From a virus, in the UHGV virus genome UHGV-0142770: a stretch of DNA of 39,194 nucleotides. One strand, written 5' to 3'. Under the pieces are notes generated by a model. That model saw only the letters and a program-made list of their open reading frames with translations. It was not told the origin of the DNA and did no database searches. A program made the translations under genes and the position numbers. This document shows, one piece after another, positions 4,454 to 37,106 of this stretch (within the stretch, counting starts at the first letter, position 1; each line of letters begins with the position of its first letter).

Positions 4454-4557
4454 GTTAAATCTCCAGATAGTCGCAGCACCCGTTGCGCCGCATATCTGGT
4501 TATTCTATTACCTGAAAAACCACATATGGATATAAAGACTGTGAATATGAATAGATA

Positions 4558-4572
4558 TTACCTTTCAGGTAA
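4558..4572. promoter_or_regulatory. Candidate repressor operator TTACCTTTCAGGTAA (TTACC-N5-GGTAA) in the divergent region between tail fibre and antirepressor operon
   Basis: Perfect 5-bp inverted arms with 5-bp spacer. The 16-mer ATTACCTTTCAGGTAA is identical to the site at 23446-23461. Confidence 0.5.
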
Positions 4573-4609
4573 TTTGCAAAACGTGCTGGATAGCAAACAA
4601 ATTATTTGA

Positions 4610-4629
4610 TACTGTATATTTATACAGTT
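4610..4629 (+). promoter_or_regulatory. LexA (SOS) box TACTGTATATTTATACAGTT upstream of the antirepressor operon
   Basis: CTGT at 4612-4615, 8-nt AT-rich spacer, ACAG at 4624-4627: matches the gamma-proteobacterial consensus CTGT-N8-ACAG. Sits about 20 nt upstream of the ATG at 4649. Confidence 0.8.
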
Positions 4630-4648
4630 ATTGCATGGAGAAGATAAG

Positions 4649-4906
4649 ATGCAGCAGTATCACTATCCACTGGAAGAGGGATTTACCGAAAGGATTCACA
4701 CGCCGGGAGGCGTCAGGTCACTGGTGGAGGGATCGCACTTGATGAAATTACTCCGGGATCTCGATAAGGATGGATTTAATGTCGATGGCCCACTTGCCGA
4801 ACTGACTGCACTGATTAACTACGTCACCAGCTCACAGATGTCTATGCAGGATCTGCAAACACATCTCGACTATTGTGCCGAACAATTACGAAAACAAACC
4901 AGATAA
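4649..4906 (+). CDS. Small protein homologous to the C-terminal domain of the downstream antirepressor; first gene of the LexA-controlled operon
   Basis: ATG 4649 with GGAG 8 nt upstream (track start 4631 is TTG). 85 aa. C-terminal ~60 aa aligns with the Ant C-terminus (DGFNVDGPLAELT...DLQTH vs DGHDVSGAAAELT...DIQTH). Confidence 0.6.
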   Translation: MQQYHYPLEEGFTERIHTPGGVRSLVEGSHLMKLLRDLDKDGFNVDGPLAELTALINYVTSSQMSMQDLQTHLDYCAEQLRKQTR

Positions 4907-4937
4907 GGTTTGTAATTACCAAATTGAGTGCTTATAT

Positions 4938-4952
4938 TTACCTTTGCGGTAA
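4938..4952. promoter_or_regulatory. Candidate repressor operator TTACCTTTGCGGTAA between the small ORF and ant
   Basis: Perfect TTACC-N5-GGTAA palindrome. Confidence 0.45.
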
Positions 4953-5045
4953 ATTTACATCGCACTCCTCTTGTGCCATAGTAATCGGGCACTGGCAAAA
5001 TCCAGTGCCGGGATTGGTCTCCCGGATTACTACAGAGGCACATAT

Positions 5046-5065
5046 GCCGCATAAGCGGTTTTTTT
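5046..5065 (+). terminator. Weak intrinsic terminator/attenuator between small ORF and ant
   Basis: Short GC stem (CCGC-ATAA-GCGG) followed by T7 run 5059-5065, preceded by two longer hairpins at 4988-5009 and 5008-5025. Confidence 0.4.
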
Positions 5066-5219
5066 ATGTGTAAAGCGCACCTATTCTATGGTGGGCTGTG
5101 TGGGGGCACCGAAAGGTGCGCCGGGTTCCTTTGTAGCCGGTAAGACCAACTCTGCACAGTTCACCACCATCTGATTGGTCTCAGCGGTGGTGATTAACCT
5201 AACTACAAAGGTGATCGCC

Positions 5220-5912
5220 ATGAATACCAAACCTTCCATCTTTTCCTTTGAGTCATCCTGCCAGATCCGTATGTTCATGATTGACGGAGAACCTTGGTTT
5301 GTCACCAAAGATGTGTGCAATGCTTTGAATATTGATGTTACACAAGCGAGAAAACTTGATAAAAAAGGCTGGAACAAAAAGGGGCTGTATTCAATACAGA
5401 CCCCTGGTGGAATACAAGAACTATCCATCGTTTCAGAATCAGGTCTCTACATCCTTATTCTGCGTTGCAAAGAGGCAATGACTGAGGGAACGAGAGCATT
5501 CAGATTTCTTGAATGGGTTACAGGCGAAGTACTTCCTCAGATCCGCCGCACCGGAAGTTACATTAAAAACTCGCTCCCGCAGGAAGAACGCATAAAGATG
5601 GTTGCCGACCAGGTAGCCAACGCCACGGCGTCAGCAGTAATGCAGGCGATGAAGATAGAGAACAAAACCTACAGTGCCCCACTGAAGCCCGGCTACCGCA
5701 GTCTGATTCATTCTCCGTCTGGTGTTCTCGGCCTGACGGAGAACTCACTGCTGATGAATCTGCTGAACCGGTTACAGGAAGACGGGCACGACGTATCGGG
5801 CGCGGCGGCGGAGCTGACCACCATGTTTTGCTACATCGTTGGTGTGAGCAAATGCCTGCGTGATATCCAGACACACGCGGAGTACATCAACGACAAAGCA
5901 GGGTTCTTCTGA
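5220..5912 (+). CDS. ant: Antirepressor (Bro-N domain, Ant-like)
   Basis: ATG 5220 with AAGGTGA 5 nt upstream. N-terminal FSFESSCQIRMFMIDGEPWFVTKDVCNALNI matches the Bro-N fold of prophage antirepressors. Downstream of a LexA box. Confidence 0.8.
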   Translation: MNTKPSIFSFESSCQIRMFMIDGEPWFVTKDVCNALNIDVTQARKLDKKGWNKKGLYSIQTPGGIQELSIVSESGLYILILRCKEAMTEGTRAFRFLEWVTGEVLPQIRRTGSYIKNSLPQEERIKMVADQVANATASAVMQAMKIENKTYSAPLKPGYRSLIHSPSGVLGLTENSLLMNLLNRLQEDGHDVSGAAAELTTMFCYIVGVSKCLRDIQTHAEYINDKAGFF

Positions 5913-23356: not shown

Positions 23357-23446
23357 ATCAATGACTCCGTACGCAATTAAATTATTACCAATTTAACCAC
23401 ATATGATTTATTTATCGTAGATAGTTGACATTTAACGCACAAATTA

Positions 23447-23461
23447 TTACCTTTCAGGTAA
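23447..23461. promoter_or_regulatory. Candidate repressor operator TTACCTTTCAGGTAA, 17 bp downstream of a TTGACA hexamer (23425-23430)
   Basis: Perfect palindrome, identical 16-mer to the site at 4557-4572, between the portal operon start and the tRNA. Confidence 0.5.
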
Positions 23462-23783
23462 GCAAAGAGTTCATTCCGGTTATTAACCTGACTGGCTTGT
23501 CGTTAAATTGAACAGGTGGAGTGAGCTTTTATTTTGAGCAGTACGGCGTATGGCACATGCGCCGATAGCGGTCTGGATACGTTTAAGGGGCACCCTCCCT
23601 TGCTCGGGCAAACGAACCAGGTAGCCGGAATGTGCAAGTCGAGCGGTTTTATTCCGCGCACGGGGATTCACCATCCCGGCGATTCGGTGTGACGCCTCGG
23701 AAGAGACGAGGGTACAACGATGAGAGCATTTATGGAGCCGCGACAAAGTGTGGTGCCTTAACAGGCTAAGTGCTCTCAGCGTT

Positions 23784-23860
23784 GTGGCATTAGCTCAGTT
23801 GGACAGAGCAACCGCCTTCTAAGCGGTTGGTCGCAGGTTCGAATCCTGCATGCCACGCCA
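23784..23860 (+). tRNA. tRNA-Arg (anticodon UCU), phage-encoded
   Basis: 77 nt cloverleaf folded by hand: acceptor GTGGCAT/ATGCCAC, D-arm GCTC...GAGC, anticodon stem ACCGC/GCGGT with loop CTTCTAA (TCT at 23818-23820), T-arm GCAGG-TTCGAAT-CCTGC, discriminator G and encoded CCA. Closely resembles enterobacterial argU. Confidence 0.9.
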
Positions 23861-23903
23861 GAATCACGCCTAAGGACCGTGATGCCAGAAGTTCCAGGTG
23901 CTT

Positions 23904-23946
23904 GGCGGTGATAGTTTCCCTTGAAGTACTATCACCGCCCTTTTTA
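23904..23946 (+). terminator. Intrinsic terminator downstream of tRNA-Arg
   Basis: 11-bp stem GGCGGTGATAG/CTATCACCGCC (23904-23914 and 23929-23939) followed by a T-run at 23941-23945. Confidence 0.75.
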
Positions 23947-24023
23947 CAGCAGGACGCCATTGCGATGACTTCATGCTGTAAACCCGTACAGCCACGGAAG
24001 GCATAACTCATTGCTTCCAGTTC

Positions 24024-24046
24024 GCCCGGTTCGCCGGGCATTTTTT
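24024..24046 (+). terminator. Second intrinsic terminator (UUCG tetraloop)
   Basis: Stem GCCCGG/CCGGGC with loop TTCG, followed by TTTTTT (24041-24046). Confidence 0.75.
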
Positions 24047-24081
24047 GCCTGATGACCACAAATTACCTTAAAGGTATAATC

Positions 24082-24900
24082 ATGAAAAACTTTAAGGTAA
24101 TTAGTATGTTCGAATCGTTCAAAGAGCTGTTTTTATCTACTGCCAATACTGCCGTGCATCGAGCCAAAAACCCTGTGCTTGGTGCTTTTGTTATGTCCTG
24201 GTGCGCCTTCAACTGGAAATCAATTCTTTATCTATTTTTTAGCAAATCAAACATAATAGATAAAATTTCATATATCTCAGATAACAGCACATGGAAAACT
24301 GTTATGTTTTATCCATGCTTATCTGTAATTGCTATCTGCTGCCTATTACCATGGGTAAACAATATCATTAACGTATGGCAAGCAAAGCCTCTTGATAATA
24401 ATGACTCAATCGAAAATCACCTGAAGGCAAGAAAAATCCAGCGTGAAACAAGACTGCAGAGGTTATTGGCTAAAAAAGATGTTACATACGACAAAGTTAA
24501 GACTGGCGCGGAAAAAGACATCCAAGAGATGAAAGAAGAGATTATTCGATCAAAGAATAGTATGGGGGAATTGACTGCCGAGTTGAAAGCTAAAGATGAC
24601 GAATTGAGATCCGCCAGTGCTCAGTTAGCAGCTCTAAATCATTCATTAAAAGAGATATCGGAAACTCTTGGAAGAATGAATGAGGCATATAAGACCCTCC
24701 AAAATGATTTCGACGAATACAAACTCAAATACCCTGAAAAATCTCAAATAAAAAGCCTTGCACTTGGCAACGGCCAAACAATTAGCAACTTTTTGGAGCA
24801 ACACAACTTATCCGGATTAAAATCTGGTAAGCCAAACGTTTTTAATAACTTTGGTGTTCTATCTGGATTATCAGGTTTCGAGGATAAAAATAAAGACTAA
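24082..24900 (+). CDS. AT-rich moron: membrane plus coiled-coil protein of unknown function (candidate exclusion/abortive-infection gene)
   Basis: ATG 24082 (alternatives 24052, 24106). Two hydrophobic segments (LGAFVMSWCAFNW; VMFYPCLSVIAICCLLPWV) then a long Lys/Glu-rich coiled coil. Opposite strand to the late operon; stop overlaps the terL stop. Preceded by an imperfect TTACC-N5-GGTAT site (24063-24077) and TATAAT (24075-24080). Confidence 0.6.
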   Translation: MKNFKVISMFESFKELFLSTANTAVHRAKNPVLGAFVMSWCAFNWKSILYLFFSKSNIIDKISYISDNSTWKTVMFYPCLSVIAICCLLPWVNNIINVWQAKPLDNNDSIENHLKARKIQRETRLQRLLAKKDVTYDKVKTGAEKDIQEMKEEIIRSKNSMGELTAELKAKDDELRSASAQLAALNHSLKEISETLGRMNEAYKTLQNDFDEYKLKYPEKSQIKSLALGNGQTISNFLEQHNLSGLKSGKPNVFNNFGVLSGLSGFEDKNKD

Positions 24901-26372: not shown

Positions 26373-26965
26373 TGATTACCATCCTGACGTTCTTTGAGTC
26401 GCTTCCTGGCTGCCGCTATGCGATCAGCAATTGTCACATTCACATTAACATCCAGGCGTTCTTTGAATGCGTTGACGTCGACGTGCTTACCAATCAGTTC
26501 TAGGTTCTTCACCTTGTCAGGCCATTTAATTTTTTTGAGGATTGTCTCTATCGAATCCTCGTTCATGTTCATGATGGTCGATGACAGATCAAAGCCACTA
26601 AGCGTAGTGCGCCAGATTTTCGGCCACTCACGGATTGGTTTAAGGCTCCCATCGTCGTTGAGGATATCGATCACGTCCATCTGGTCGATCTCCACCAAGC
26701 GCATGAGAACGTAATCAGCACTGACGCGCATTCGTTTGTTGCGCTCCTCCATCAACTCGGCAATCCGTTTTTGAATGCGTTCATCGCGCATCATGACACT
26801 GGCTTTAACTGCCGCTGTATTTGGGGAGAATCCTGCGTTAATCGCTGCCTGAGTCTGGTTTTCAGGCGTTTTGATGTATGACTGGCAATAAGCCTCCTGC
26901 ATTGCTGTGAGCGGCTTAAATTGCGTTGATTTGCGTTTATAGGTTTTAGGTTCAGCAGGCATCAT
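26369..26965 (-). CDS. terS: Terminase small subunit (TerS)
   Basis: Start taken at the ATG pair 26965/26962 (GGTGG just upstream) rather than track TTG at 27043, which would place a terminator hairpin inside the gene. Basic helical N-terminus, coupled to terL. Confidence 0.7.
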   Translation of the reverse strand: MMPAEPKTYKRKSTQFKPLTAMQEAYCQSYIKTPENQTQAAINAGFSPNTAAVKASVMMRDERIQKRIAELMEERNKRMRVSADYVLMRLVEIDQMDVIDILNDDGSLKPIREWPKIWRTTLSGFDLSSTIMNMNEDSIETILKKIKWPDKVKNLELIGKHVDVNAFKERLDVNVNVTIADRIAAARKRLKERQDGNQ

Positions 26966-27009
26966 AACCACCGTGGTAATAGTTACCATTGTGGTAATAG
27001 TACCATGCA

Positions 27010-27034
27010 AAATAAAGCCGCCATAGTTGGCGGC
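27010..27034 (-). terminator. Intrinsic terminator immediately upstream of terS
   Basis: On the minus strand: stem GCCGCC, loop AACTAT, stem GGCGGC (27034-27017), followed by UUUAUUUU (27016-27010). Confidence 0.6.
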
Positions 27035-27083
27035 AGTATTCAAAACCCATCAAATTCATCATGCATAATCTACTCGTGACATG

Positions 27084-29925: not shown

Positions 29926-30620
29926 TTTTGCTCACCACTCTGTTCTTCCAGAAAAATACGCATAGCCTCAAGCATCTCTTCGGTGTCATACGGAGACAGC
30001 TTGTCACGCAGGATGTGTTCAATGCTGTTAATGAACTTGCGGATTGCTTTGCGTTCAATTTCAGCCAGGAAAGCGTCGGTGGCTGGGGTTTCGATATTAG
30101 GCAGAAGCGCATAATCGCAAATCGTATCGATCGCAGGATCACAACAGTCATCCTCGTTGCGTGGTCGTTCGCCAACCTTCGTTGACGATTGCATGATGAT
30201 TCCCCAGCAAATACTATCGACCTCTTCGCTCCATCCATCGCAAGCATCACCGCGATAGTCGTCGATTGCAGCCTCAGCCGATTCGATAGCTTCCTCAGCA
30301 GTTTTGTGCCATTCGAAATTATGCTCAGAGCCATATGAGAAATATGAATGTCCCGCCTTCAGCCCCGCATTCTCCGCCGCCAGCGCCGAAAACTTCTCGT
30401 GTGCCAACTTAACAGCCGAATCAGCCTGCTTAATTGACTCAATCGCTCTCTGGTGGTCTTCGGCCAGCGCATTAGCACGCACCAGTTGCACTTCCAGTTG
30501 CGTTGCCAAATCGCTGATCAGCTTTGCCACACTGCGCATATCAACGGCACCACATTCTGCTTTCAGTTCCGAAGCCATCTCATGCCCGGCGGCAACTAAC
30601 CCTTTGATATTACTTTCCAT
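29922..30620 (-). CDS. Hypothetical protein
   Basis: 232 aa, acidic, coupled; no motif recognised. Confidence 0.45.
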   Translation of the reverse strand: MESNIKGLVAAGHEMASELKAECGAVDMRSVAKLISDLATQLEVQLVRANALAEDHQRAIESIKQADSAVKLAHEKFSALAAENAGLKAGHSYFSYGSEHNFEWHKTAEEAIESAEAAIDDYRGDACDGWSEEVDSICWGIIMQSSTKVGERPRNEDDCCDPAIDTICDYALLPNIETPATDAFLAEIERKAIRKFINSIEHILRDKLSPYDTEEMLEAMRIFLEEQSGEQK

Positions 30621-30681
30621 CTTTACCCTCGCTTATCCACATAACTTATTGATTACATTGATAACTAAAAAGATCGTCGAT

Positions 30682-31026
30682 TCAGAACTCTTCGATGTTC
30701 CAGCCACCACCTGCTTTCTTTGGCTTAACCGTTACCCCGATGATTCGGAACGGATACTGATCTGCGGCGACTTTGGTTTTCACCCTGGCGTCGTCGGTCC
30801 AGAAACCTTTCACTTCGTGCAGTTCCATCTCGCCGGTGGCGAGCATCACAGCAAAATCGGGCGTATAGAACGTGTTGTCAGCTAACCGCAACTTGATACC
30901 CTCGAATCGATACCAGGCGATTTCCCCTGCACGTTTACGCTGCTCAAGGTGCTGGCAATACGCAGATTCTGTTTTGTTCATCTGGCCTGTTTTGAGTCGA
31001 CCAAGAGCCTGTATCTGTTTTCTCAT
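30682..31026 (-). CDS. PD-(D/E)XK-like small phage protein (DUF1064-like)
   Basis: 114 aa with YTPDF ... ELHEVK spacing compatible with a PD-(D/E)XK nuclease core. A perfect TTACC-N5-GGTAA site lies 4 nt upstream of its ATG. Confidence 0.45.
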   Translation of the reverse strand: MRKQIQALGRLKTGQMNKTESAYCQHLEQRKRAGEIAWYRFEGIKLRLADNTFYTPDFAVMLATGEMELHEVKGFWTDDARVKTKVAADQYPFRIIGVTVKPKKAGGGWNIEEF

Positions 31027-31029
31027 GAT

Positions 31030-31044
31030 TTACCTCTAAGGTAA
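31030..31044. promoter_or_regulatory. Candidate repressor operator TTACCTCTAAGGTAA abutting a -10-like TTTAAT (minus-strand promoter)
   Basis: Perfect palindrome. On the minus strand TTGATT-N17-TTTAAT immediately precedes it, the same layout as the promoter at 34187-34229. Confidence 0.5.
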
Positions 31045-31091
31045 TTAAAAACCACATAAGACACGAAATCAATAGAGTTTAGAATGTTTTG

Positions 31092-31106
31092 TTACCTGAT
31101 AGGTAA
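31092..31106. promoter_or_regulatory. Candidate repressor operator TTACCTGATAGGTAA
   Basis: Perfect palindrome 62 bp from the 31030 site, flanking the same promoter region downstream of the P-like gene. Confidence 0.5.
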
Positions 31107-31143
31107 TTATTGAGACGTAAAAAAATGCGCTATCGCGCTGGTA

Positions 31144-31944
31144 TTACTTGATAAATCCTGCCGCCTTTCCCCGCCTGTATTCCTCCATCAGCCACTGCGC
31201 CGGTGTTATTCCCCCAAGGGTGGCGGCGTTAGGCATGCACCCGAAACTTCGCCCTGGTGGATGGTAAACGTCTCTCCCTGTGTCCGGAGGCGTACTCATG
31301 GGCTCTGGCTTTGCCTGTATGCTGATCACCGGATCGGGTATCTGCTGTCCGGAAGCCACCTTTTTCGCCCAATCATCGAGCAGCCTGCGTGCGTGTTTCT
31401 CAACCTCAATCTCGCTAAGCTGGCGCTGATACATTGCACGGCGGGTATCACATACGACCCAGTACATAACCGGATGTCGCCACGGGAATCTTTCGGGACC
31501 ACCAGGATATAAACTTTTTTCCTTGCTGTACCGGTGAAACTCCGCCATCACATCGTCAATGGTGACGCCAAGAACCATCTTGCTGTCTTTGCACCACTTG
31601 ATAAATTGCCCTGGAGACGGCCAGAACGGAGATTCACTGGCGCGGGCGTGGCGCATACCAGCAGAAACCTGTTCACGGGTTCGGATCCCCCCTTCGGCAA
31701 ACGCAGCAATCCACTGCTGTTTTGCAGCAACTTCCTGCTCTGGCGTCTTCAGGTTGGTTACCACTGCCGCCGGAAACAGTTGTTTCAGCTGTTTAAAAAG
31801 GGCATCAACAAGCCTCTCTGCTGACATGTTCACCACATTGTCATTGTTGACGTACTGATGCTCATAACCTGACATGCGAGAAAGGGCTTCTCCGTCACGG
31901 TTTTGTATCGCGGTAAAAACGTTGTTCACAAGAAATCCTCCCAT
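31144..31944 (-). CDS. Replication protein P-like (helicase loader)
   Basis: 266 aa; QQWIAAFAEGGIRTREQVSAGMRHARASESPFWPSPGQFIKWC closely parallels lambda P (RRQWVLAFRENGITTMEQVNAGMRVARRQNRPFLPSPGQFVAWC). Directly follows the O-like gene. Confidence 0.8.
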   Translation of the reverse strand: MGGFLVNNVFTAIQNRDGEALSRMSGYEHQYVNNDNVVNMSAERLVDALFKQLKQLFPAAVVTNLKTPEQEVAAKQQWIAAFAEGGIRTREQVSAGMRHARASESPFWPSPGQFIKWCKDSKMVLGVTIDDVMAEFHRYSKEKSLYPGGPERFPWRHPVMYWVVCDTRRAMYQRQLSEIEVEKHARRLLDDWAKKVASGQQIPDPVISIQAKPEPMSTPPDTGRDVYHPPGRSFGCMPNAATLGGITPAQWLMEEYRRGKAAGFIK

Positions 31945-32759
31945 GCTTCAGGGCTGTTCCAGTGCGGAACGTTGTTATCAGGTAATGTTGATTGCTTCTG
32001 TCTGCTAATCTGCAGCCGCCTTGCCAGCTTCTGCTCCCACTGCGCCTGATGGTATGCCTTACCCTCAGCCATCCAGTAAATTCTGAACTCTGCAAGTTCC
32101 TGTGCCGTTGGCAGACTGTCCAGGTAGATCCCCTGCAATGAGCTTTTCCGAAGAAAGTCATCTGATGGTTGCCATTGTTCATGCATGACAAATTTGCCTA
32201 ATTGCCCTGGCCCACCAGGAGGAACAAAGTTATTCATCACGGCGTTGTTTGCGCCGGGGTCATGAGGCACAGAATCCCCGCTTTTTGTCCTGCTCTCCCT
32301 CTCTTGGTTAAATGACTGGTTATATGACTGGTTCTGGATCCCGTTTTTGGGATCATTCAACATCCCGTTTTTGGGATCATTCAACATCCCGTTTTTGGGT
32401 ATATTCCCGTTTTCGGTAACATTACCGTTTTCGGTAACATTACCGTTTTCGGGTTCATTACCCCCTTCCCGGTTGCCTTTAATGTTCCCGTTTTTGGTTA
32501 TATTAAGAGAGAAAACCCGCACTCTTTTCGTCGCTCCCTTTCTCTCTCCGGTATCTGAAATAAGCCCCATTTTCATGAGCGATATAAGCCCGGCCTGCAC
32601 GGTTTTTTTATTCAGACAAGTGTCTTTAACGAGGCGTTCTATGCTGGGGTAGCAGAGGTTATATTCATCGGCTCTGTCAGCCATCGAGAGCAGTATGAGC
32701 TTTAATGACGAGCTACCTGGATCTGTCTCCCAGGCCCAATCTGTTGCATGTCTGCTCAT
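31926..32759 (-). CDS. Replication initiator O-like protein with iteron-encoded repeat region
   Basis: 277 aa; N-terminal winged-helix-like region (LKLILLSMADRADEYNLCYPSIERLVKDT...); central NGNVTENGN... repeats are encoded by DNA iterons; followed by the P-like gene with overlap. Confidence 0.75.
   Translation of the reverse strand: MSRHATDWAWETDPGSSSLKLILLSMADRADEYNLCYPSIERLVKDTCLNKKTVQAGLISLMKMGLISDTGERKGATKRVRVFSLNITKNGNIKGNREGGNEPENGNVTENGNVTENGNIPKNGMLNDPKNGMLNDPKNGIQNQSYNQSFNQERESRTKSGDSVPHDPGANNAVMNNFVPPGGPGQLGKFVMHEQWQPSDDFLRKSSLQGIYLDSLPTAQELAEFRIYWMAEGKAYHQAQWEQKLARRLQISRQKQSTLPDNNVPHWNSPEAWEDFL
32338..32505. repeat. Replication origin iterons inside the O-like gene
   Basis: ATCCCGTTTTTGGGATCATTCAAC at 32338-32361 repeats exactly at 32362-32385 with a third partial copy; then CCCGTTTTCGGTAACATTA-type copies at 32406, 32425, 32443 and 32487. 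Seven CCGTTTT(T/C)GG cores with 18-24 bp period. Confidence 0.7.
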
Positions 32760-32774
32760 GATTAATCTCCGCTA

Positions 32775-32975
32775 TCAGCTTGAATGTTGTGGGGAGGAAT
32801 TAATCATGATCTGCTTAATCTCTGCCCTGATACGACGGTTTGATTCCATGGTGCACTCAACACAGTGTCCGTTGTAAACCCAGCGTTCACTGTCATGTCC
32901 GTGCTTACATGTTTTTCCGGTGTAGTAGCGTTTAAGTCCGCGCTTTGCGGCATCAATACGTGTAATGATTTCCAT
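32775..32975 (-). CDS. Small putative Zn-binding regulator at the cII-equivalent position
   Basis: ATG 32975; about 66 aa with C-x-H-G-H ... H-C-V-E-C spacing, between the Cro-like gene and the O-like gene. Confidence 0.4.
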   Translation of the reverse strand: MEIITRIDAAKRGLKRYYTGKTCKHGHDSERWVYNGHCVECTMESNRRIRAEIKQIMINSSPQHSS

Positions 32976-33080
32976 GGTAAGCCCTGTTATTAGTATTGGG
33001 ATTACGGTCATTTTGTGCTGACACAAAAAAAAGATCAACCAGATTTGGTTTTTTATTACCTTTGAGGTACGAATAGATAT

Positions 33081-33104
33081 GAAAAGACCGCCGGATGGCG
33101 GTCT
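33081..33104 (-). terminator. tR1-like intrinsic terminator between the cro-like gene and downstream early genes
   Basis: 8-bp stem AGACCGCC/GGCGGTCT with GGAT loop (33085-33104); on the minus strand followed by UUUUC (33084-33081). Confidence 0.6.
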
Positions 33105-33125
33105 ACAGAGGGTTGTTGCCAGATA

Positions 33126-33356
33126 TCATGAGTAGAAGAAGTATGCCAGTTCCGCTTTTGAGCGCAGCCATTGTCTTGTTTTACAGGCTTTAAAAAGCCC
33201 ATTCATCAATACCTTACCTGGCATTTTGCGCTTACCTGTTAAGTGAGTCTGGATATAGTGACTCGTCGTTCCGGCTTCCTGTGCGAAGGCTTCACGCTCA
33301 TCCGGAGTAAGTGCAAGCCAGTGCTTTTTGAAATCGAAATGTCCGTTATCGCTCAT
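33126..33356 (-). CDS. Cro/YdaS-like HTH regulator
   Basis: 76 aa, first gene of the rightward operon, divergent from the CI-like gene; HTH-like segment AFAQEAGTTSHYIQTHLTGKRK. Confidence 0.6.
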   Translation of the reverse strand: MSDNGHFDFKKHWLALTPDEREAFAQEAGTTSHYIQTHLTGKRKMPGKVLMNGLFKACKTRQWLRSKAELAYFFYS

Positions 33357-33388
33357 AGCTATTGCCTGATATTTATTTCAGATAATAA

Positions 33389-33417
33389 ATATTCACCCAT
33401 AAGGTAACAAAAATCAA
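33389..33417 (-). promoter_or_regulatory. Candidate pR-like promoter for the cro-like gene
   Basis: On the minus strand TTGATT (33417-33412), 17-bp spacer, GAATAT (33394-33389), about 30 nt upstream of cro ATG 33356. Confidence 0.35.
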
Positions 33418-33440
33418 GGATAGTTACCTATGAGGTGCAT

Positions 33441-33455
33441 TTACCTGTTGGGTAA
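33441..33455. promoter_or_regulatory. Candidate repressor operator TTACCTGTTGGGTAA in the cro/CI divergent region
   Basis: Perfect palindrome; an imperfect copy (TTACCTATGAGGTGC, 33424-33438) lies 2 bp away, giving tandem sites 17 bp centre-to-centre. Confidence 0.5.
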
Positions 33456-33510
33456 TATTGCTTTAAATTGAATCATCTACTGATTCATATATGAGGCGAT
33501 TTTCCAGAAA

Positions 33511-34095
33511 ATGAAAAGTATCCAGGACGTCCGCAGGCAAAATCTCAACGACTTGATCGACCGTGAATTCAATGGTGTTCAGACGCGGATGGCAGAAAAA
33601 CTTGGAACTCAGGCAAATCTGGTAAACCGCTGGGCTCTTGGCAAGAAGGTTATCGGCGACCAGGTTGCGCGAAAAATTGAAGCTGCCGCCAATAAACCCC
33701 GTAACTGGCTTGATATCGATCGCTCGCTTTCTCAGGAAGGTTTTCAGCCTGTCGGCCCAAGCGACATTGGTCAGCTGGCAGCTCACAACCTGGAACGCTG
33801 GATGAGTGAAAGCCGCGACCTTTCAACTCAGGGAAAACTTCACCGCGCATCCGGCGTCGCCCAGGTGACAATAAGCCGCCTGTTAAACAATGAGGTCAGC
33901 GTTTCCATTTCCACCCTGGAGAATGTTGCATCTGCATTCGGGCGTCACGGATATGAACTACTGATCCATCCGCATGACCCTGCAACTATCAACTATGACC
34001 GCTCGCGCTACGCATTGTTACCTGAAACAGAGAAGGCAAAGATCGAAAGTTACATTGAATTTGTCATCAACCAGAACGAAAAAAACAAACAATAA
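33511..34095 (+). CDS. CI-like repressor, non-cleavable type (XRE HTH, no S24 peptidase motifs)
   Basis: 194 aa; N-terminal HTH (VQTRMAEKLGTQANLVNRWALGKK) like lambdoid repressors; C-terminal half lacks the Ser/Lys autopeptidase signature; divergent from cro and followed by a terminator. Confidence 0.65.
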   Translation: MKSIQDVRRQNLNDLIDREFNGVQTRMAEKLGTQANLVNRWALGKKVIGDQVARKIEAAANKPRNWLDIDRSLSQEGFQPVGPSDIGQLAAHNLERWMSESRDLSTQGKLHRASGVAQVTISRLLNNEVSVSISTLENVASAFGRHGYELLIHPHDPATINYDRSRYALLPETEKAKIESYIEFVINQNEKNKQ

Positions 34096-34116
34096 AATCA
34101 TATTTTTCAGTAAGTA

Positions 34117-34140
34117 AGCCGCCTTATGGCGGCTTTTTTA
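34117..34140 (+). terminator. Intrinsic terminator after the CI-like gene
   Basis: Stem AGCCGCC/GGCGGCT with TTAT loop followed by TTTTTT. Confidence 0.7.
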
Positions 34141-34152
34141 TTGCCTATTCGA

Positions 34153-34167
34153 TTACCTAACAGGTAA
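34153..34167. promoter_or_regulatory. Candidate repressor operator TTACCTAACAGGTAA (OL-like, upstream of -35)
   Basis: Perfect palindrome 20 bp upstream of TTGACA at 34187-34192. Confidence 0.5.
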
Positions 34168-34186
34168 TTTTTTTAACTCATATCTA

Positions 34187-34229
34187 TTGACATCAAACCA
34201 GATACGCATAATTATTACCTCAACGGTAA
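34187..34229 (+). promoter_or_regulatory. pL-like early promoter with overlapping operator (TTGACA-N17-AATTAT then TTACCTCAACGGTAA)
   Basis: -35 TTGACA 34187-34192, 17-bp spacer, -10-like AATTAT 34210-34215, perfect operator at 34215-34229 spanning the predicted start site; drives the plus-strand operon. Confidence 0.5.
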
Positions 34230-34248
34230 CAGACCGAGGTAACAAGTT

Positions 34249-34401
34249 ATGCAGTGGAAAATCATCAACGGTTGGTACTGCGTTACTGCATGCGGATTCA
34301 TGAGCTGGAAGTTCCGCACCTTACAGGAAGGCATTAAGTGGGCTTTCGTCAGCAAAGAAGCTCGCGATGTGGCCAACGATAACGAGATATGGGAGGGCTG
34401 A
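34249..34401 (+). CDS. Small ORF, first in the early-left operon (hypothetical)
   Basis: 50 codons, ATG 34249 with GAGGT 8 nt upstream; stop overlaps the next start (TGATAATG). Below the ORF-track threshold, so tentative. Confidence 0.3.
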   Translation: MQWKIINGWYCVTACGFMSWKFRTLQEGIKWAFVSKEARDVANDNEIWEG

Positions 34402-34403
34402 TA

Positions 34404-34703
34404 ATGAACGTTAATCAGCAGAAAAATCTTCAAAAAATCATGCTGGCATTCGACAAGGACTACCGCCTGTCAGAACAGCTATATGACCGACAAGTTGAAC
34501 TGATTGAGAGTATCCGGCTTCATCAACTGGCATCAACTTTCGACGTTGTAACAGTTAAAGGCGTTCGCCAGGAAGTACTGGAGGCCGCTAAAGACAGCCC
34601 TGAGTTCGAAGAACTAATGGATGCCTACCGGCGCGAGGCAATGGCAATTATCGCCCGCTGGGATCTGGCTGATCAGATTGATGGGCAGAGGGACGCGGCA
34701 TGA
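34404..34703 (+). CDS. Hypothetical early protein
   Basis: ATG 34404 with GGAGGG upstream; 99 aa; stop overlaps the exonuclease start. Confidence 0.5.
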   Translation: MNVNQQKNLQKIMLAFDKDYRLSEQLYDRQVELIESIRLHQLASTFDVVTVKGVRQEVLEAAKDSPEFEELMDAYRREAMAIIARWDLADQIDGQRDAA

Positions 34704-35521
34704 ATCCGGGAATTTATTTCGATATCAGCAACGAGGACTACCACGCCGGTGACGGCGTGAGTAAGTCGCAGCTAGATATGGTGGCTAAGAACCCTGCCCT
34801 TCTGAAATGGGTGAAGGCTGCTCCGGAAGACGAAGAGAAGAAGTCTGCACTGGACATGGGTACTGCTCTGCACTGTCTGCTTCTGGAACCTGGAGAGTTT
34901 GACAAACGCTTCATCGTTTCACCGAAATTCGATCGTCGGACAAAACAAGGTAAAGCTGACGAAGAGGCATTTATTCGTGATGTAGCGGATATGGGGATTT
35001 CGGTACTTGATGCAGAGCAGTGGCGAAAACTGGAGCTGATGCGTGATAGCGCAATGGCTCACCCGGCGGCACGCTGGATGTTGGAAGCACCTGGTTACTG
35101 CGAAGCATCAATGTACTGGAACGATGAAGATACGGGTGAGTTGTGCCGAATTCGTCCAGACAAATGGCTGAACGAGCACAACGTGATCGTCGACGTGAAA
35201 AAGGTTGCAGATATGGACCGTTTTGCACGCCACATCGAGGAGTTCCGCTACCACGTGCAGGACGCAATGTACCGCGAAGGCGCAATGAGGGTTACTGGTC
35301 AGCCACATGGTTTTTTCTTTCTTGCCGTGAGCGAAAGCATTGATTGTGGTCGGTATCCGGTACGCGTGTTCGAGCTGGATGCGCCGGATGTCGATGCCGG
35401 GCACGCTCTGTTCCGCCGGGATCTGAATACCTATCACGAATGCCGCATCAACGATGAGTGGGGCGGAGTGGAAATTATTAAACGCCCTGACTGGGCACGT
35501 AAACAGGATATGTACGTATGA
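34700..35521 (+). CDS. PD-(D/E)XK exonuclease (RecE/DUF3799-like recombination exonuclease)
   Basis: 273 aa; N-terminal GIYFDISNEDYHAGDGVSKSQL is the recalled DUF3799/YqaJ-like signature; D...(D/E)xK candidates (RIRPDKW, VDVKKV); coupled to the annealing-protein gene. Confidence 0.65.
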   Translation: MNPGIYFDISNEDYHAGDGVSKSQLDMVAKNPALLKWVKAAPEDEEKKSALDMGTALHCLLLEPGEFDKRFIVSPKFDRRTKQGKADEEAFIRDVADMGISVLDAEQWRKLELMRDSAMAHPAARWMLEAPGYCEASMYWNDEDTGELCRIRPDKWLNEHNVIVDVKKVADMDRFARHIEEFRYHVQDAMYREGAMRVTGQPHGFFFLAVSESIDCGRYPVRVFELDAPDVDAGHALFRRDLNTYHECRINDEWGGVEIIKRPDWARKQDMYV

Positions 35522-36399
35522 GCAATGATATCGCAATCACATCACAACCAGGCGCAACTGTAGGTACTGCTGCGGCAATCTTCAGCCCGGAGGGCATGAA
35601 TCAACTGGTGCGTTTCGCGGAGTTGATGTCACAAAGCAAAGCGACTGTACCGAAACATCTTGAAGGCAAACCTGCCGATTGTCTGGCGGTGACCATGCAG
35701 GCGGCACAGTGGGGAATGAATCCTTTCGCCGTGGCGCAGAAAACGCATGTGGTAAACGGAACGTTAGGCTACGAAGCACAGTTGGTAAACGCGGTCGTAT
35801 CCTCTTCCAGCCTGCTAGCGACACGCCTGAATTATCGCTGGAGCGGTGACTGGTCGAATGTTAACGGCAAAACAGATAAATCACCGAATCTGACGGTAAC
35901 TGTGTCAGCAGTTCTTAAAGGAGAAGCAGAACCCCGTGAGCTTACCATCAGTATGGCGCAAGCCGGAGTGCGTAACTCTCCATTGTGGGAACAGGATCCG
36001 CGCCAGCAGCTTGCCTATCTTTGCACGAAACGATGGGCTCGCCTGCACGCTCCTGATGTACTTCTCGGTGTTTACACCCCTGACGAATTACAGGAAACGG
36101 CACCGCGCGTTGAGCGAGACATTACTCCGCAAACGACCACTGCTGCGGGAATGAACAGTCTGATCAACGCTAAACCAGCGAAAAAGCCTGATGAGCAAAC
36201 GCGTAAAGCGGATAGCCGTGATCCAGAAGAAATGCTGATGGCCTTTACCAGCGCAGCGATGAATTACAGCACTGTCTCCGAACTGGATAAGGCTTACAAA
36301 TACATTGCACAAAAACTTTCAGATGATGACGAACTGCTGGCAAAAGCCACCGACGTTTACAGCGTTCGTCGGGAAGAATTAAACGAAACATCTATGTAA
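35518..36399 (+). CDS. Single-strand annealing protein, RecT/Red-beta (Bet) family
   Basis: 293 aa; AAQWGMNPFA..., SPLWEQDP..., ARLHAPDVLLGVYTPDE and ERDITPQ parallel lambda Bet (ANQYGLNPWT, GPWQSHP, ARLAFGFAGIYDKDE, ERDITPV). Confidence 0.7.
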   Translation: MSNDIAITSQPGATVGTAAAIFSPEGMNQLVRFAELMSQSKATVPKHLEGKPADCLAVTMQAAQWGMNPFAVAQKTHVVNGTLGYEAQLVNAVVSSSSLLATRLNYRWSGDWSNVNGKTDKSPNLTVTVSAVLKGEAEPRELTISMAQAGVRNSPLWEQDPRQQLAYLCTKRWARLHAPDVLLGVYTPDELQETAPRVERDITPQTTTAAGMNSLINAKPAKKPDEQTRKADSRDPEEMLMAFTSAAMNYSTVSELDKAYKYIAQKLSDDDELLAKATDVYSVRREELNETSM

Positions 36400-36448
36400 C
36401 CACCACCGCGGCGCCACGCGCGCCGCACTGCAACCAAGAGAGGTATTT

Positions 36449-36697
36449 ATGAAAGGTGCATTAGGTAAGAAGGAACTCCTGGCGGTGGTGCCACTGTCAT
36501 GGAGCACTATCGACCGTATGGAGCGCGCAGGGGAATTTCCTAAACGCTGGTATATCACCGATAAACGCTGCGCATGGAACCGTGATGAAGTTGAGCGTTG
36601 GCTTGATGAACGTCAGGCAGCAAGCCCGGCAGAGTTCCAGGGTAAAAAACCTCCTGTTCAGCAACGTGTATATCGTCCCGTGAGCAACGCGGCATGA
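36449..36697 (+). CDS. AlpA-family DNA-binding protein (putative excisionase/regulator)
   Basis: 82 aa; LLAVVPLSWSTIDRMERAGEFPK...W.RDEVERWL follows the AlpA/Xis-like HTH pattern; located before the integrase. Confidence 0.6.
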   Translation: MKGALGKKELLAVVPLSWSTIDRMERAGEFPKRWYITDKRCAWNRDEVERWLDERQAASPAEFQGKKPPVQQRVYRPVSNAA

Positions 36698-36806
36698 GTG
36701 TGCTGCTAAGGCACTGGAGCAAATGGTCAGGATGGTACTTATTCCTGGCCTCTGTTTCTGCATGGCTTTATCTGCTGGCATTAATTTTCAGAGAGGGTTG
36801 GATTAA

Positions 36807-37106
36807 GTGAGAAAGTTAAGCCGACTTGAAAAATATCACATGAACAAGGTTTCAATGCGCAGCCCTTCAAAGGTTGTTGCCGTTACTCCTGCGGCGATAG
36901 AGATCGAAAAACGCGCGATTGAAAGAGAGAAAAAAGGGCAGTTCCGCATTGCCGCCCACCTTTGGCTTCAGTGTATGGATGTTGCTTCTGGTGATGTTGA
37001 GCGTGCAAGGATCGCGGTTCGCAGGGACCAATGTATCACAAAAGGTAACGGCCTTCGCCGTGGCGACTATAGCGGTATAGGATGTTGCGGGGTGGTTTAT
37101 GACTAA
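36807..37106 (+). CDS. Small regulator-like protein (possibly PerC-like; uncertain)
   Basis: 99 aa; the segment FRIAAHLWLQCMDVASGDVERARIAVRRDQC loosely recalls PerC-family activators. Start uncertain (GTG 36807 or ATG 36840). Confidence 0.35.
   Translation: MRKLSRLEKYHMNKVSMRSPSKVVAVTPAAIEIEKRAIEREKKGQFRIAAHLWLQCMDVASGDVERARIAVRRDQCITKGNGLRRGDYSGIGCCGVVYD

Follow-up and report, generated by a model that had tools for sequence, protein, structure and literature searches.

A conserved candidate promoter for the replication genes beyond the cro terminator of a phiV10-like Rep/Ant immunity region

The virus genome UHGV-0142770, whose 39,194 nucleotides (nt) we refer to as the window, carries around positions 33081-34229 an immunity region in which a repressor gene (rep) and a cro-like gene diverge, an intrinsic terminator follows each of them, and the replication genes lie beyond the terminator of cro. 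Sequence homology identifies the region as the immunity switch of a temperate podovirus of the phiV10/epsilon15 type; it has a lambda-like layout and belongs to the kind known from phage SPC32H, in which the repressor Rep is paired with an antirepressor, Ant. The best explanation of our data, which we hold at a probability of about 0.62, is that this Rep/Ant switch controls the region and that the replication genes are transcribed mainly from a promoter of their own, here termed pO, and not by antiterminated read-through from pR, the promoter of cro. The initial annotation had offered two routes past the cro terminator, a separate promoter near 33056 or an unrecognized antiterminator, and our analysis favors the first of these, given a conserved TTGATC-16/17-CAAAAT element with an upstream operator in every lineage examined. 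The elements concerned are the following.

33126-33356, minus strand: cro-like gene, first in the rightward operon, encoding a helix-turn-helix (HTH) protein of 76 amino acids (aa) (PHROG 35)
33104-33085 (hairpin) and 33084-33074 (tail), minus strand: intrinsic terminator after cro, annotated in phiV10
33056-33070: Rep operator past the cro terminator, GTACCTCAAAGGTAA, one mismatch, centered at about -60 from the predicted pO start
33037-33050: palindrome AACCAAATCTGGTT, termed M2, centered at about -41 from the predicted pO start and overlapping the -35 element
33010-33038, minus strand: pO, predicted sigma-70-type promoter of the Zn-finger/O/P operon, with -35 TTGATC (33038-33033), a 17-nt spacer and -10 CAAAAT (33015-33010)
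32775-32978, minus strand: Zn-finger gene, first after pO (PHROG 1081, function unknown)

Read along the minus strand, the operator is followed by 17 nt that contain the palindrome, by TTGATC, a further 17 nt, CAAAAT, about 30 nt and the ATG of the Zn-finger gene; the predicted transcript would start near 33003, and its leader would measure about 25 nt. The same succession of hairpin, operator, palindrome, TTGATC, 16 or 17 nt, CAAAAT, about 30 nt and ATG was found in nine diverged lineages, which we aligned as five phages from GenBank and, from Superficieibacter, Kluyvera, Citrobacter and Klebsiella, four prophages. The mean column identity of this alignment is 68%, yet GGTAA, GGTTGATC and AAAAT show no variation at all. 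An operator site stands upstream of pO in all lineages examined, its promoter-proximal GGTAA half being perfect and its distal half imperfect.

A wider census, which added 160 IMG/VR loci and phage ZX5 to the lineage set, comprised 118 unique sequences. With the Zn-finger protein of the window as the query only near-identical loci were recovered, and it was the epsilon15 version that reached the other lineages. The -35 hexamer is TTGATC in 109 of the 118 sequences, TTGATA in six and TTGACC in three, and the -10 hexamer is CAAAAT in 112, GAAAAT in four, and AAAAAT and CAGAAT in one each. The spacer between them is always 16 or 17 nt long and occurs in 31 different sequences. A mosaic junction falls exactly at the -35 element of pO (33033): ZX5, TL-2011b, HEMP4 and a subset of Escherichia coli prophages have the immunity module in common with the window only as far as TTGATC, and beyond it they carry a different Zn-finger/replication module. 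In ZX5, TL-2011b and the prophage subset, CAAAAT returns 16 nt past TTGATC with an unrelated spacer in between. Fixed hexamers, varied spacers and the retention of CAAAAT across the junction together form a pattern that selection on a promoter would produce, and from it we infer that pO fires in vivo. The Zn-finger gene of the ZX5 type, which has a TTG start, is unannotated in the records of the ZX5, TL-2011b and HEMP4 group.

Several points weigh against this assignment. The pO hexamers match the consensus at 8 of 12 positions, under the 9 of 12 used as cut-off in our promoter scan, and there is no clear extended -10 element; pO may therefore be weak or activator-dependent. Of the pO operators, the upstream one is imperfect and the proximal one expected on the other side is degenerate in the window (this position is best preserved in BUCT554, as TTACCGTAATAGTAA), so that repression of pO by Rep is uncertain. 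The sequences compared are of shared ancestry, and their conservation could in part reflect a protein-binding site. Some read-through from pR is also likely, since the cro terminator is of moderate strength (+16.8), and the literature searched yielded no data on transcription starts or termination for this phage group. Two further ideas about this segment were set aside. Control by Dam through the GATC in the -35 element is weakened by the natural variants TTGATA and TTGACC, which lack GATC, and a rightward, pRE-like promoter at 33028-33056 that would run antisense through cro has no -35 element and a -10 element without A at position 2.

The terminator that separates cro from these genes was present where the initial annotation had placed it (33081-33104), as a hairpin, AGACCGCC-ATCC-GGCGGTCT, followed by the tail TTTCATATCT. 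The hairpin has a folding free energy of -15 kcal/mol and a z-score of -5.7, and none of 200 shuffled sequences folded equally well. It had been described as strong; its score of +16.8, from our own implementation of a d'Aubenton-Carafa-type scheme, predicts a terminator of only moderate strength, and the equivalent hairpins of the epsilon15 and Klebsiella relatives lack a U-tract. The second terminator that had been noted, after the repressor gene, is likewise there and is predicted to be strong.

34116-34135 (hairpin) with T-run to 34145, plus strand: intrinsic terminator after rep, annotated in phiV10

Its free energy is -21 kcal/mol, its z-score -6.0 and its score +37.7. Neither terminator is new, as the phiV10 record DQ126339.2, whose orientation is opposite to that of the window, already labels "putative rho-independent terminators" after the repressor, cro-like and P-like genes.

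The terminator after cro varies across the group. Its hairpin is conserved in all lineages, with an invariant GGCGG in the 3' arm. A U-tract follows it only in the phiV10, Tyrion, BUCT554, L219 and L223 types. In the epsilon15 and Klebsiella types TCCTTCC or TCCTGCC takes its place, with scores of -38.8 and -34.8; the phiV10/Tyrion/BUCT554 type scores +16.8; and two other lineages have T6 tails and scores of +36.8 and +41.8. Canonical terminators behind rep and cro alike are found in the phiV10, Tyrion and BUCT554 lineages and are missing at both places in those of epsilon15 and Klebsiella BUCT711. The coupling of cro to the replication genes probably differs among lineages. This variation bears on a rival account, namely that termination is leaky, that unassisted read-through from pR feeds the replication genes and that the TTGATC...CAAAAT block serves some other purpose. 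The moderate cro terminator, with four U residues and then an interrupted tail (+16.8 as against +37.7 after rep), is what this account would expect, and with the hairpins that lack a U-tract, read-through from pR is probably usual in the epsilon15 and Klebsiella relatives. It leaves unexplained, however, why hexamers at promoter spacing are fixed across 31 spacers and a mosaic junction, and the lineages with very strong terminators retain the same downstream element. We consider it unlikely as the main route. Since pO is kept both where the cro hairpin has a U-tract and where the U-tract is missing, it did not arise recently to compensate for the terminator.

The other route, in which an unrecognized antiterminator such as one of the first pL products, or a cis-acting RNA, carries pR transcripts past the terminator in the manner of lambda N or HK022 put, is suggested by the resemblance of the layout to lambda pR-cro-tR1. 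The first two genes of the early-left operon, transcribed from its promoter pL, could supply such a factor in that they belong to PHROG 898 and 856, both of unknown function; their products are of 50 aa (34249-34401) and 99 aa (34404-34703). Elsewhere in the phage antitermination may exist, as the late operon begins right after a terminator (about 27030-27000) with no obvious promoter. At the cro terminator we found nothing in its support. The 50-aa and 99-aa proteins have no Pfam or NCBIfam family. No 15-aa window with at least six arginines occurs in any real early open reading frame (ORF), which agrees with the earlier remark that no N-like, Arg-rich antiterminator is evident at the start of the early-left operon; the Arg-rich matches in a scan of all ORFs were only out-of-frame ORFs inside real genes. 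A boxA-like sequence was not found in 30000-37000. With 21 nt from the cro stop codon to the hairpin, and leaders of about 20-27 nt at pR and pL, the noncoding sequence is too short to accommodate a nut or put element; a put-type, two-stem RNA of about 70 nt would exceed any untranslated stretch ahead of the cro terminator, and Rfam gave no match to one. An Rfam scan by E-value over 30000-37000 and a gathering-threshold scan of the whole window detected no leader RNA, whether of the nut, the put or another type, in the immunity region, where the matches, a RyhB-like one at the rep terminator (E 0.24) and a snoR12-like one (E 0.56), were at chance level and were discarded. Antitermination at this site therefore appears very improbable.

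Around the late-operon start, 26960-27035 (minus strand) holds a good intrinsic terminator, GCCGCCAACTATGGCGGC + TTTATTTTG (score +21), followed by two adjoining TTACCA-N3-TGGT(A/T)A sites, candidates for binding by Rep, a late regulator or terminase, directly after which comes the start codon of terS; no obvious promoter was seen there.

The operators through which Rep is expected to act are inverted repeats, TTACC-N5-GGTAA, most commonly in the form TTACCT-N3-AGGTAA. Nine perfect copies occur in the window, where base composition predicts 0.04, and at up to two mismatches there are 38 sites against 10.7 ± 3.0 in shuffled sequences, a number reached by none of 100 shuffles. The operator sequence is, as had been noted, unlike that of lambda. 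Sites stand at each early promoter as listed here, together with the candidate promoters.

33393-33407, 33424-33438 and 33441-33455: OR, three Rep operators between rep and cro
33389-33417, minus strand: candidate pR, TTGATT, 17 nt, GAATAT, with the OR1 operator in the spacer
34153-34167, plus strand: distal operator of pL
34187-34192 and 34210-34215, plus strand: pL, -35 TTGACA and -10 AATTAT separated by 17 nt
34215-34229, plus strand: proximal operator of pL
31138-31127, minus strand: hairpin with T7 after gene P, a weak terminator, annotated in phiV10
31106-31092, minus strand: distal operator of the post-P promoter
31072-31067 and 31049-31044, minus strand: post-P promoter, TTGATT and TTTAAT separated by 17 nt
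31044-31030, minus strand: proximal operator of the post-P promoter, ahead of the ATG of a DUF1064 gene at 31026

We compared these sites in five phages, the phiV10-type window, Tyrion, BUCT554, Klebsiella phage BUCT711 and epsilon15. All four relatives have sites in the rep-cro interval as well as pairs spaced 62-63 bp at pL and past the replication genes, and the operator core is common to the window and the epsilon15/SPC32H lineage. In epsilon15, OR has three sites arranged as in the window, their starts about 30 and 17 bp apart, and the GenBank record of this phage annotates the sites equivalent to those at pL as "repressor" binding sites; at a threshold of one mismatch, two OR sites are detected in each of Tyrion, BUCT554 and BUCT711, whose aligned sequence also contains a weaker third. 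The TTGATT hexamer of pR is kept in all five phages (the promoter scan also gave an overlapping alternative, TTGTTA-17-TATTAT, at 33410-33382), as are the hexamers of pL, whose TTGACA-17-AATTAT is the best promoter match of the region, and the post-P module with its operator spacing of 62 bp. At pL the order is distal operator, 19 nt, TTGACA, 17 nt and -10 element, and the gap from distal operator to TTGATT is also 19 nt after gene P. The design "terminator, operator, promoter, operator" thus recurs at pL and after gene P, and the layout upstream of pO mirrors the upstream half of pL, with 17 instead of 19 nt from operator to -35; the 25-nt stretch 33037-33061 resembles its pL counterpart at 76% (repeat D4). 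Further such sites lie near ant, near the Bro-N gene, around a tRNA gene and before terS.

The tRNA gene, for tRNA-Arg(UCU) (23784-23860, plus strand), lies where the sequence between the terminase and portal genes is variable (23380-24100) and is flanked by Rep operators at 23447, which adjoins a perfect TTGACA, and at 24063, which overlaps GGTATAAT right before an ATG at 24082.

The conserved block past the cro terminator could also be read as a protein platform and not a promoter, with Rep at 33056-33070 acting as a roadblock to polymerase that escapes the terminator (a "stoperator") and with the palindrome and TTGATC...CAAAAT binding another phage or host protein. Downstream of the terminator tail, 14 nt precede the operator, whose half nearer the promoter does not vary, and the palindrome, in which the CC and GG arms are conserved and the center varies, looks like a dimer site. 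Against this, the hexamers match sigma-70 elements both in sequence and in their spacing of 16 or 17 nt, and they share with the -35 elements of pL and the post-P promoter a register to the upstream operator (17 versus 19 nt). The roadblock and promoter roles can, moreover, coexist. We regard a platform in place of a promoter as quite unlikely.

With pO as the promoter of the replication genes, the early region would work as follows. Rep would bind its 15-bp TTACC-N5-GGTAA operators and silence pR, which overlaps the divergent rep promoter, as well as pL, pO and the post-P promoter. The terminators after rep and cro would split the region into short, separately repressed units, namely pR and cro; pO with the Zn-finger, O and P genes; the post-P promoter with nin-like genes; and the recombination genes behind pL. 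Every unit would have Rep operators of its own and most would end in a hairpin. Such a chain of separately promoted units needs no antiterminator for the replication genes to be expressed. If these are read from pO, the terminator after cro would act as an insulator that uncouples the dosage of Cro from that of the replication genes. Upon induction, a small LexA-controlled Ant would disable Rep. The remaining genes on which this scheme draws are these.

33511-34095, plus strand: rep, prophage repressor of 194 aa with two HTH domains (PDB 5D50_A, Pfam HTH_3)
31926-32759, minus strand: O-like replication protein with HTH_36 and DnaT domains (Pfam DnaT 1.2e-15, HTH_36 1.9e-10)
31144-31944, minus strand: lambda-P-like replication protein (Pfam Phage_lambda_P 1.5e-56)

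Within the O-like gene, 32360-32470 contains tandem direct repeats, GGTAACATTACCGTTTTC twice and then a variant copy, GGGTTCATTACCCCCTTC, with more CCGTTTT-bearing stretches close by; by analogy with lambda O these are probably the iterons of an origin.

In the palindrome M2 the outer CC and GG positions are conserved across lineages around a variable center, and the spacers of both pL and the post-P promoter hold M2-like half or full sites, which suggests a second regulator. A position near -41 is typical of class II activators, and a site within the -35/-10 spacer is a repressing position. Matches to IHF or DnaA boxes in the palindrome were poor by inspection, and a genome-wide regulon defined by AACCA-N4-TGGTT was dropped as not significantly enriched (28 sites against 17.3 expected, with 28 reached in 3 of 100 shuffles); we retain the motif as a positionally conserved element only. 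M2 also forms part of a composite element, in which exactly 5 nt separate a half or full TTACC operator site from an AACCA(C/G)AT..GGTT-type palindrome; copies of the element lie at 4507-4531, 4897-4925, 23385-23408, 31030-31063, 33037-33070 and 34196-34229. Diverged relatives carry it in the same position at pO, at pL and at the post-P promoter. A more speculative extension, which we consider doubtful, is that a cascade of DNA-binding regulators takes the place of antitermination in setting early timing. One phage protein at M2, for which the Cro-like protein is the obvious candidate, would activate the replication genes and lower expression of the early-left and nin-like genes, and Rep tetramers would clamp the operator pairs 62 bp apart.

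The 76-aa protein itself matches PHROG 35, "transcriptional repressor" (E 5.6e-13). A single-sequence structure prediction gave a five-helix bundle with a predicted local distance difference test score (pLDDT) of 81.6, whose best fold matches, to YdaS and 434-repressor-like proteins, were non-significant (E >1); the name Cro is based on gene position and the predicted HTH fold. Among the five phages it is 58-84% identical, and the stretch AGTTSHYIQ.HLT, which includes a predicted helix (residues 32-40), is invariant. Rep is far less conserved (42-78% identity of the repressors of Tyrion, BUCT554, BUCT711 and epsilon15 to that of the window) and diverges most in its C-terminal half. In SPC32H this half is reportedly the domain bound by Ant, a finding attributed to the 2016 work of Kim et al.

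The assignment of the repressor to the SPC32H kind follows from a match of residues 1-190, both domains, to SPC32H Rep (PDB 5D50_A, E 4e-42 by phmmer). A Pfam search of Rep returned HTH families only (HTH_3) and no S24 peptidase domain, consistent with the initial view of a repressor that lacks one. Its absence is accounted for by a LexA-controlled antirepressor that would serve induction, the gene and sites for which lie elsewhere in the window.

4558-4572: Rep operator ahead of ant (sequence match)
4612-4627: LexA box CTGTATATTTATACAG, 22 nt upstream of the ant ATG (sequence match only)
4649-4906, plus strand: ant, antirepressor (PDB 5D50_E "Anti-repressor protein", E 2.1e-47)

Together the LexA box, the Rep operator and ant (4558-4906) are, on sequence evidence, the SOS-linked induction arm of the switch. 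Kim and Ryu (in J Virol, 2013) and Kim et al. (in PNAS, 2016) are said to have found that LexA-controlled Ant inactivates the non-cleavable, tetrameric Rep of SPC32H. This account of LexA, Ant and a tetrameric Rep is backed in part by a summary in PMC9638917. We assume by homology that Rep of the window is a tetramer as well; with two units for binding DNA, a tetramer would fit the operator pairs spaced 62 bp. The ZX5 and phiV10 repressors are 100% identical to that of the window, and those of the epsilon15/SPC32H lineage about 42%. In ZX5, the effects of both repressor and antirepressor have been demonstrated by overexpression, with that of the repressor blocking lytic growth and lowering lysis-gene transcripts by more than 99.9% (PMC9782041).

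Downstream of ant, Rfam gathering-level matches identify an isrK RNA (4989-5065) and a C4 antisense RNA (5084-5171), and this pair sits between a perfect Rep operator (4938-4952) and an antirepressor-like gene with a Bro-N domain (5175-5912). The array resembles the operator, c4 and ant of P1 immI and by this analogy would be a second antirepressor module.

The phage is an epsilon15-like temperate podovirus of the genus Uetakevirus and phiV10-like, phiV10 and its close relatives being 98% identical over the 1.75 kb around the immunity region. The immunity module was found in 541 of 5426 complete E. coli genomes. Every element that the initial annotation had placed in the region was recovered, in position or displaced by a few bases. 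Its divergent cro/CI pair corresponds to 33126-33356 (minus strand) and 33511-34095 (plus strand), and the lambda-like layout it described is upheld, with the divergent repressor and cro, a terminator past cro with the replication genes beyond it, and the early-left operon after the repressor.

The immunity type has been characterized before in SPC32H, and the region is an additional, well-populated member of this type. The two systems share a full-length Rep homologue, an Ant homologue, the LexA box at the ant promoter, the operator core and the gene order (rep, cro-like, Zn-finger and replication genes). They differ in that Rep of the window is only about 42% identical to the SPC32H and epsilon15 proteins, in the canonical terminators that the phiV10 lineage has after rep and cro where epsilon15 has hairpins without a U-tract, and in the added second module of isrK/C4 RNA and Bro-N protein.

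With lambda, the region has in common a divergent repressor and cro with three operators between them, a terminator past cro with the replication genes beyond it, and a repressor gene followed by a terminator and a co-directional early-left operon with recombination genes. In contrast to lambda, N protein and nut sites were not found in the early region of the window, its repressor has no domain for RecA-dependent self-cleavage, its operator pairs bracket promoters at 62 bp, and a conserved predicted promoter precedes the replication genes. The cro terminator is also intrinsic, whereas lambda tR1 is Rho-dependent. As with P1 C1 and immI, a single repressor has operators scattered genome-wide at many promoters, and a C4-family antisense RNA lies downstream of an operator and upstream of an antirepressor-like gene. 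The operators of P1 are, however, asymmetric 17-mers, whereas those of the window are symmetric, and its repressor is unrelated to C1 and its core switch lambda-like with a divergent cro. The "stoperators" of mycobacteriophage L5 gp71 offer a further parallel in that a repressor site lies within a transcription unit, just past a terminator, where it could block elongation in a lysogen. L5 has about 30 asymmetric, orientation-dependent sites of this sort, unlike the window, which has one, symmetric and at the distal position of a promoter-operator.

What is added here is the conserved, probable internal promoter, predicted from sequence, together with the repeated design "terminator, operator, promoter, operator". 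It is a modest refinement of a known system and introduces no new principle. PhiV10 has been engineered for work on E. coli O157. Reviews of phage engineering discuss it, and it is also treated in the literature as a phage of O157:H7. A probable Rep-controlled promoter for the replication genes, and transcription units cut by terminators, would be useful for engineering these phages, and the division into separate early units may aid in predicting the leakage of prophage genes in lysogens. For this family of phages, a lambda-like layout need not mean lambda-like antitermination.

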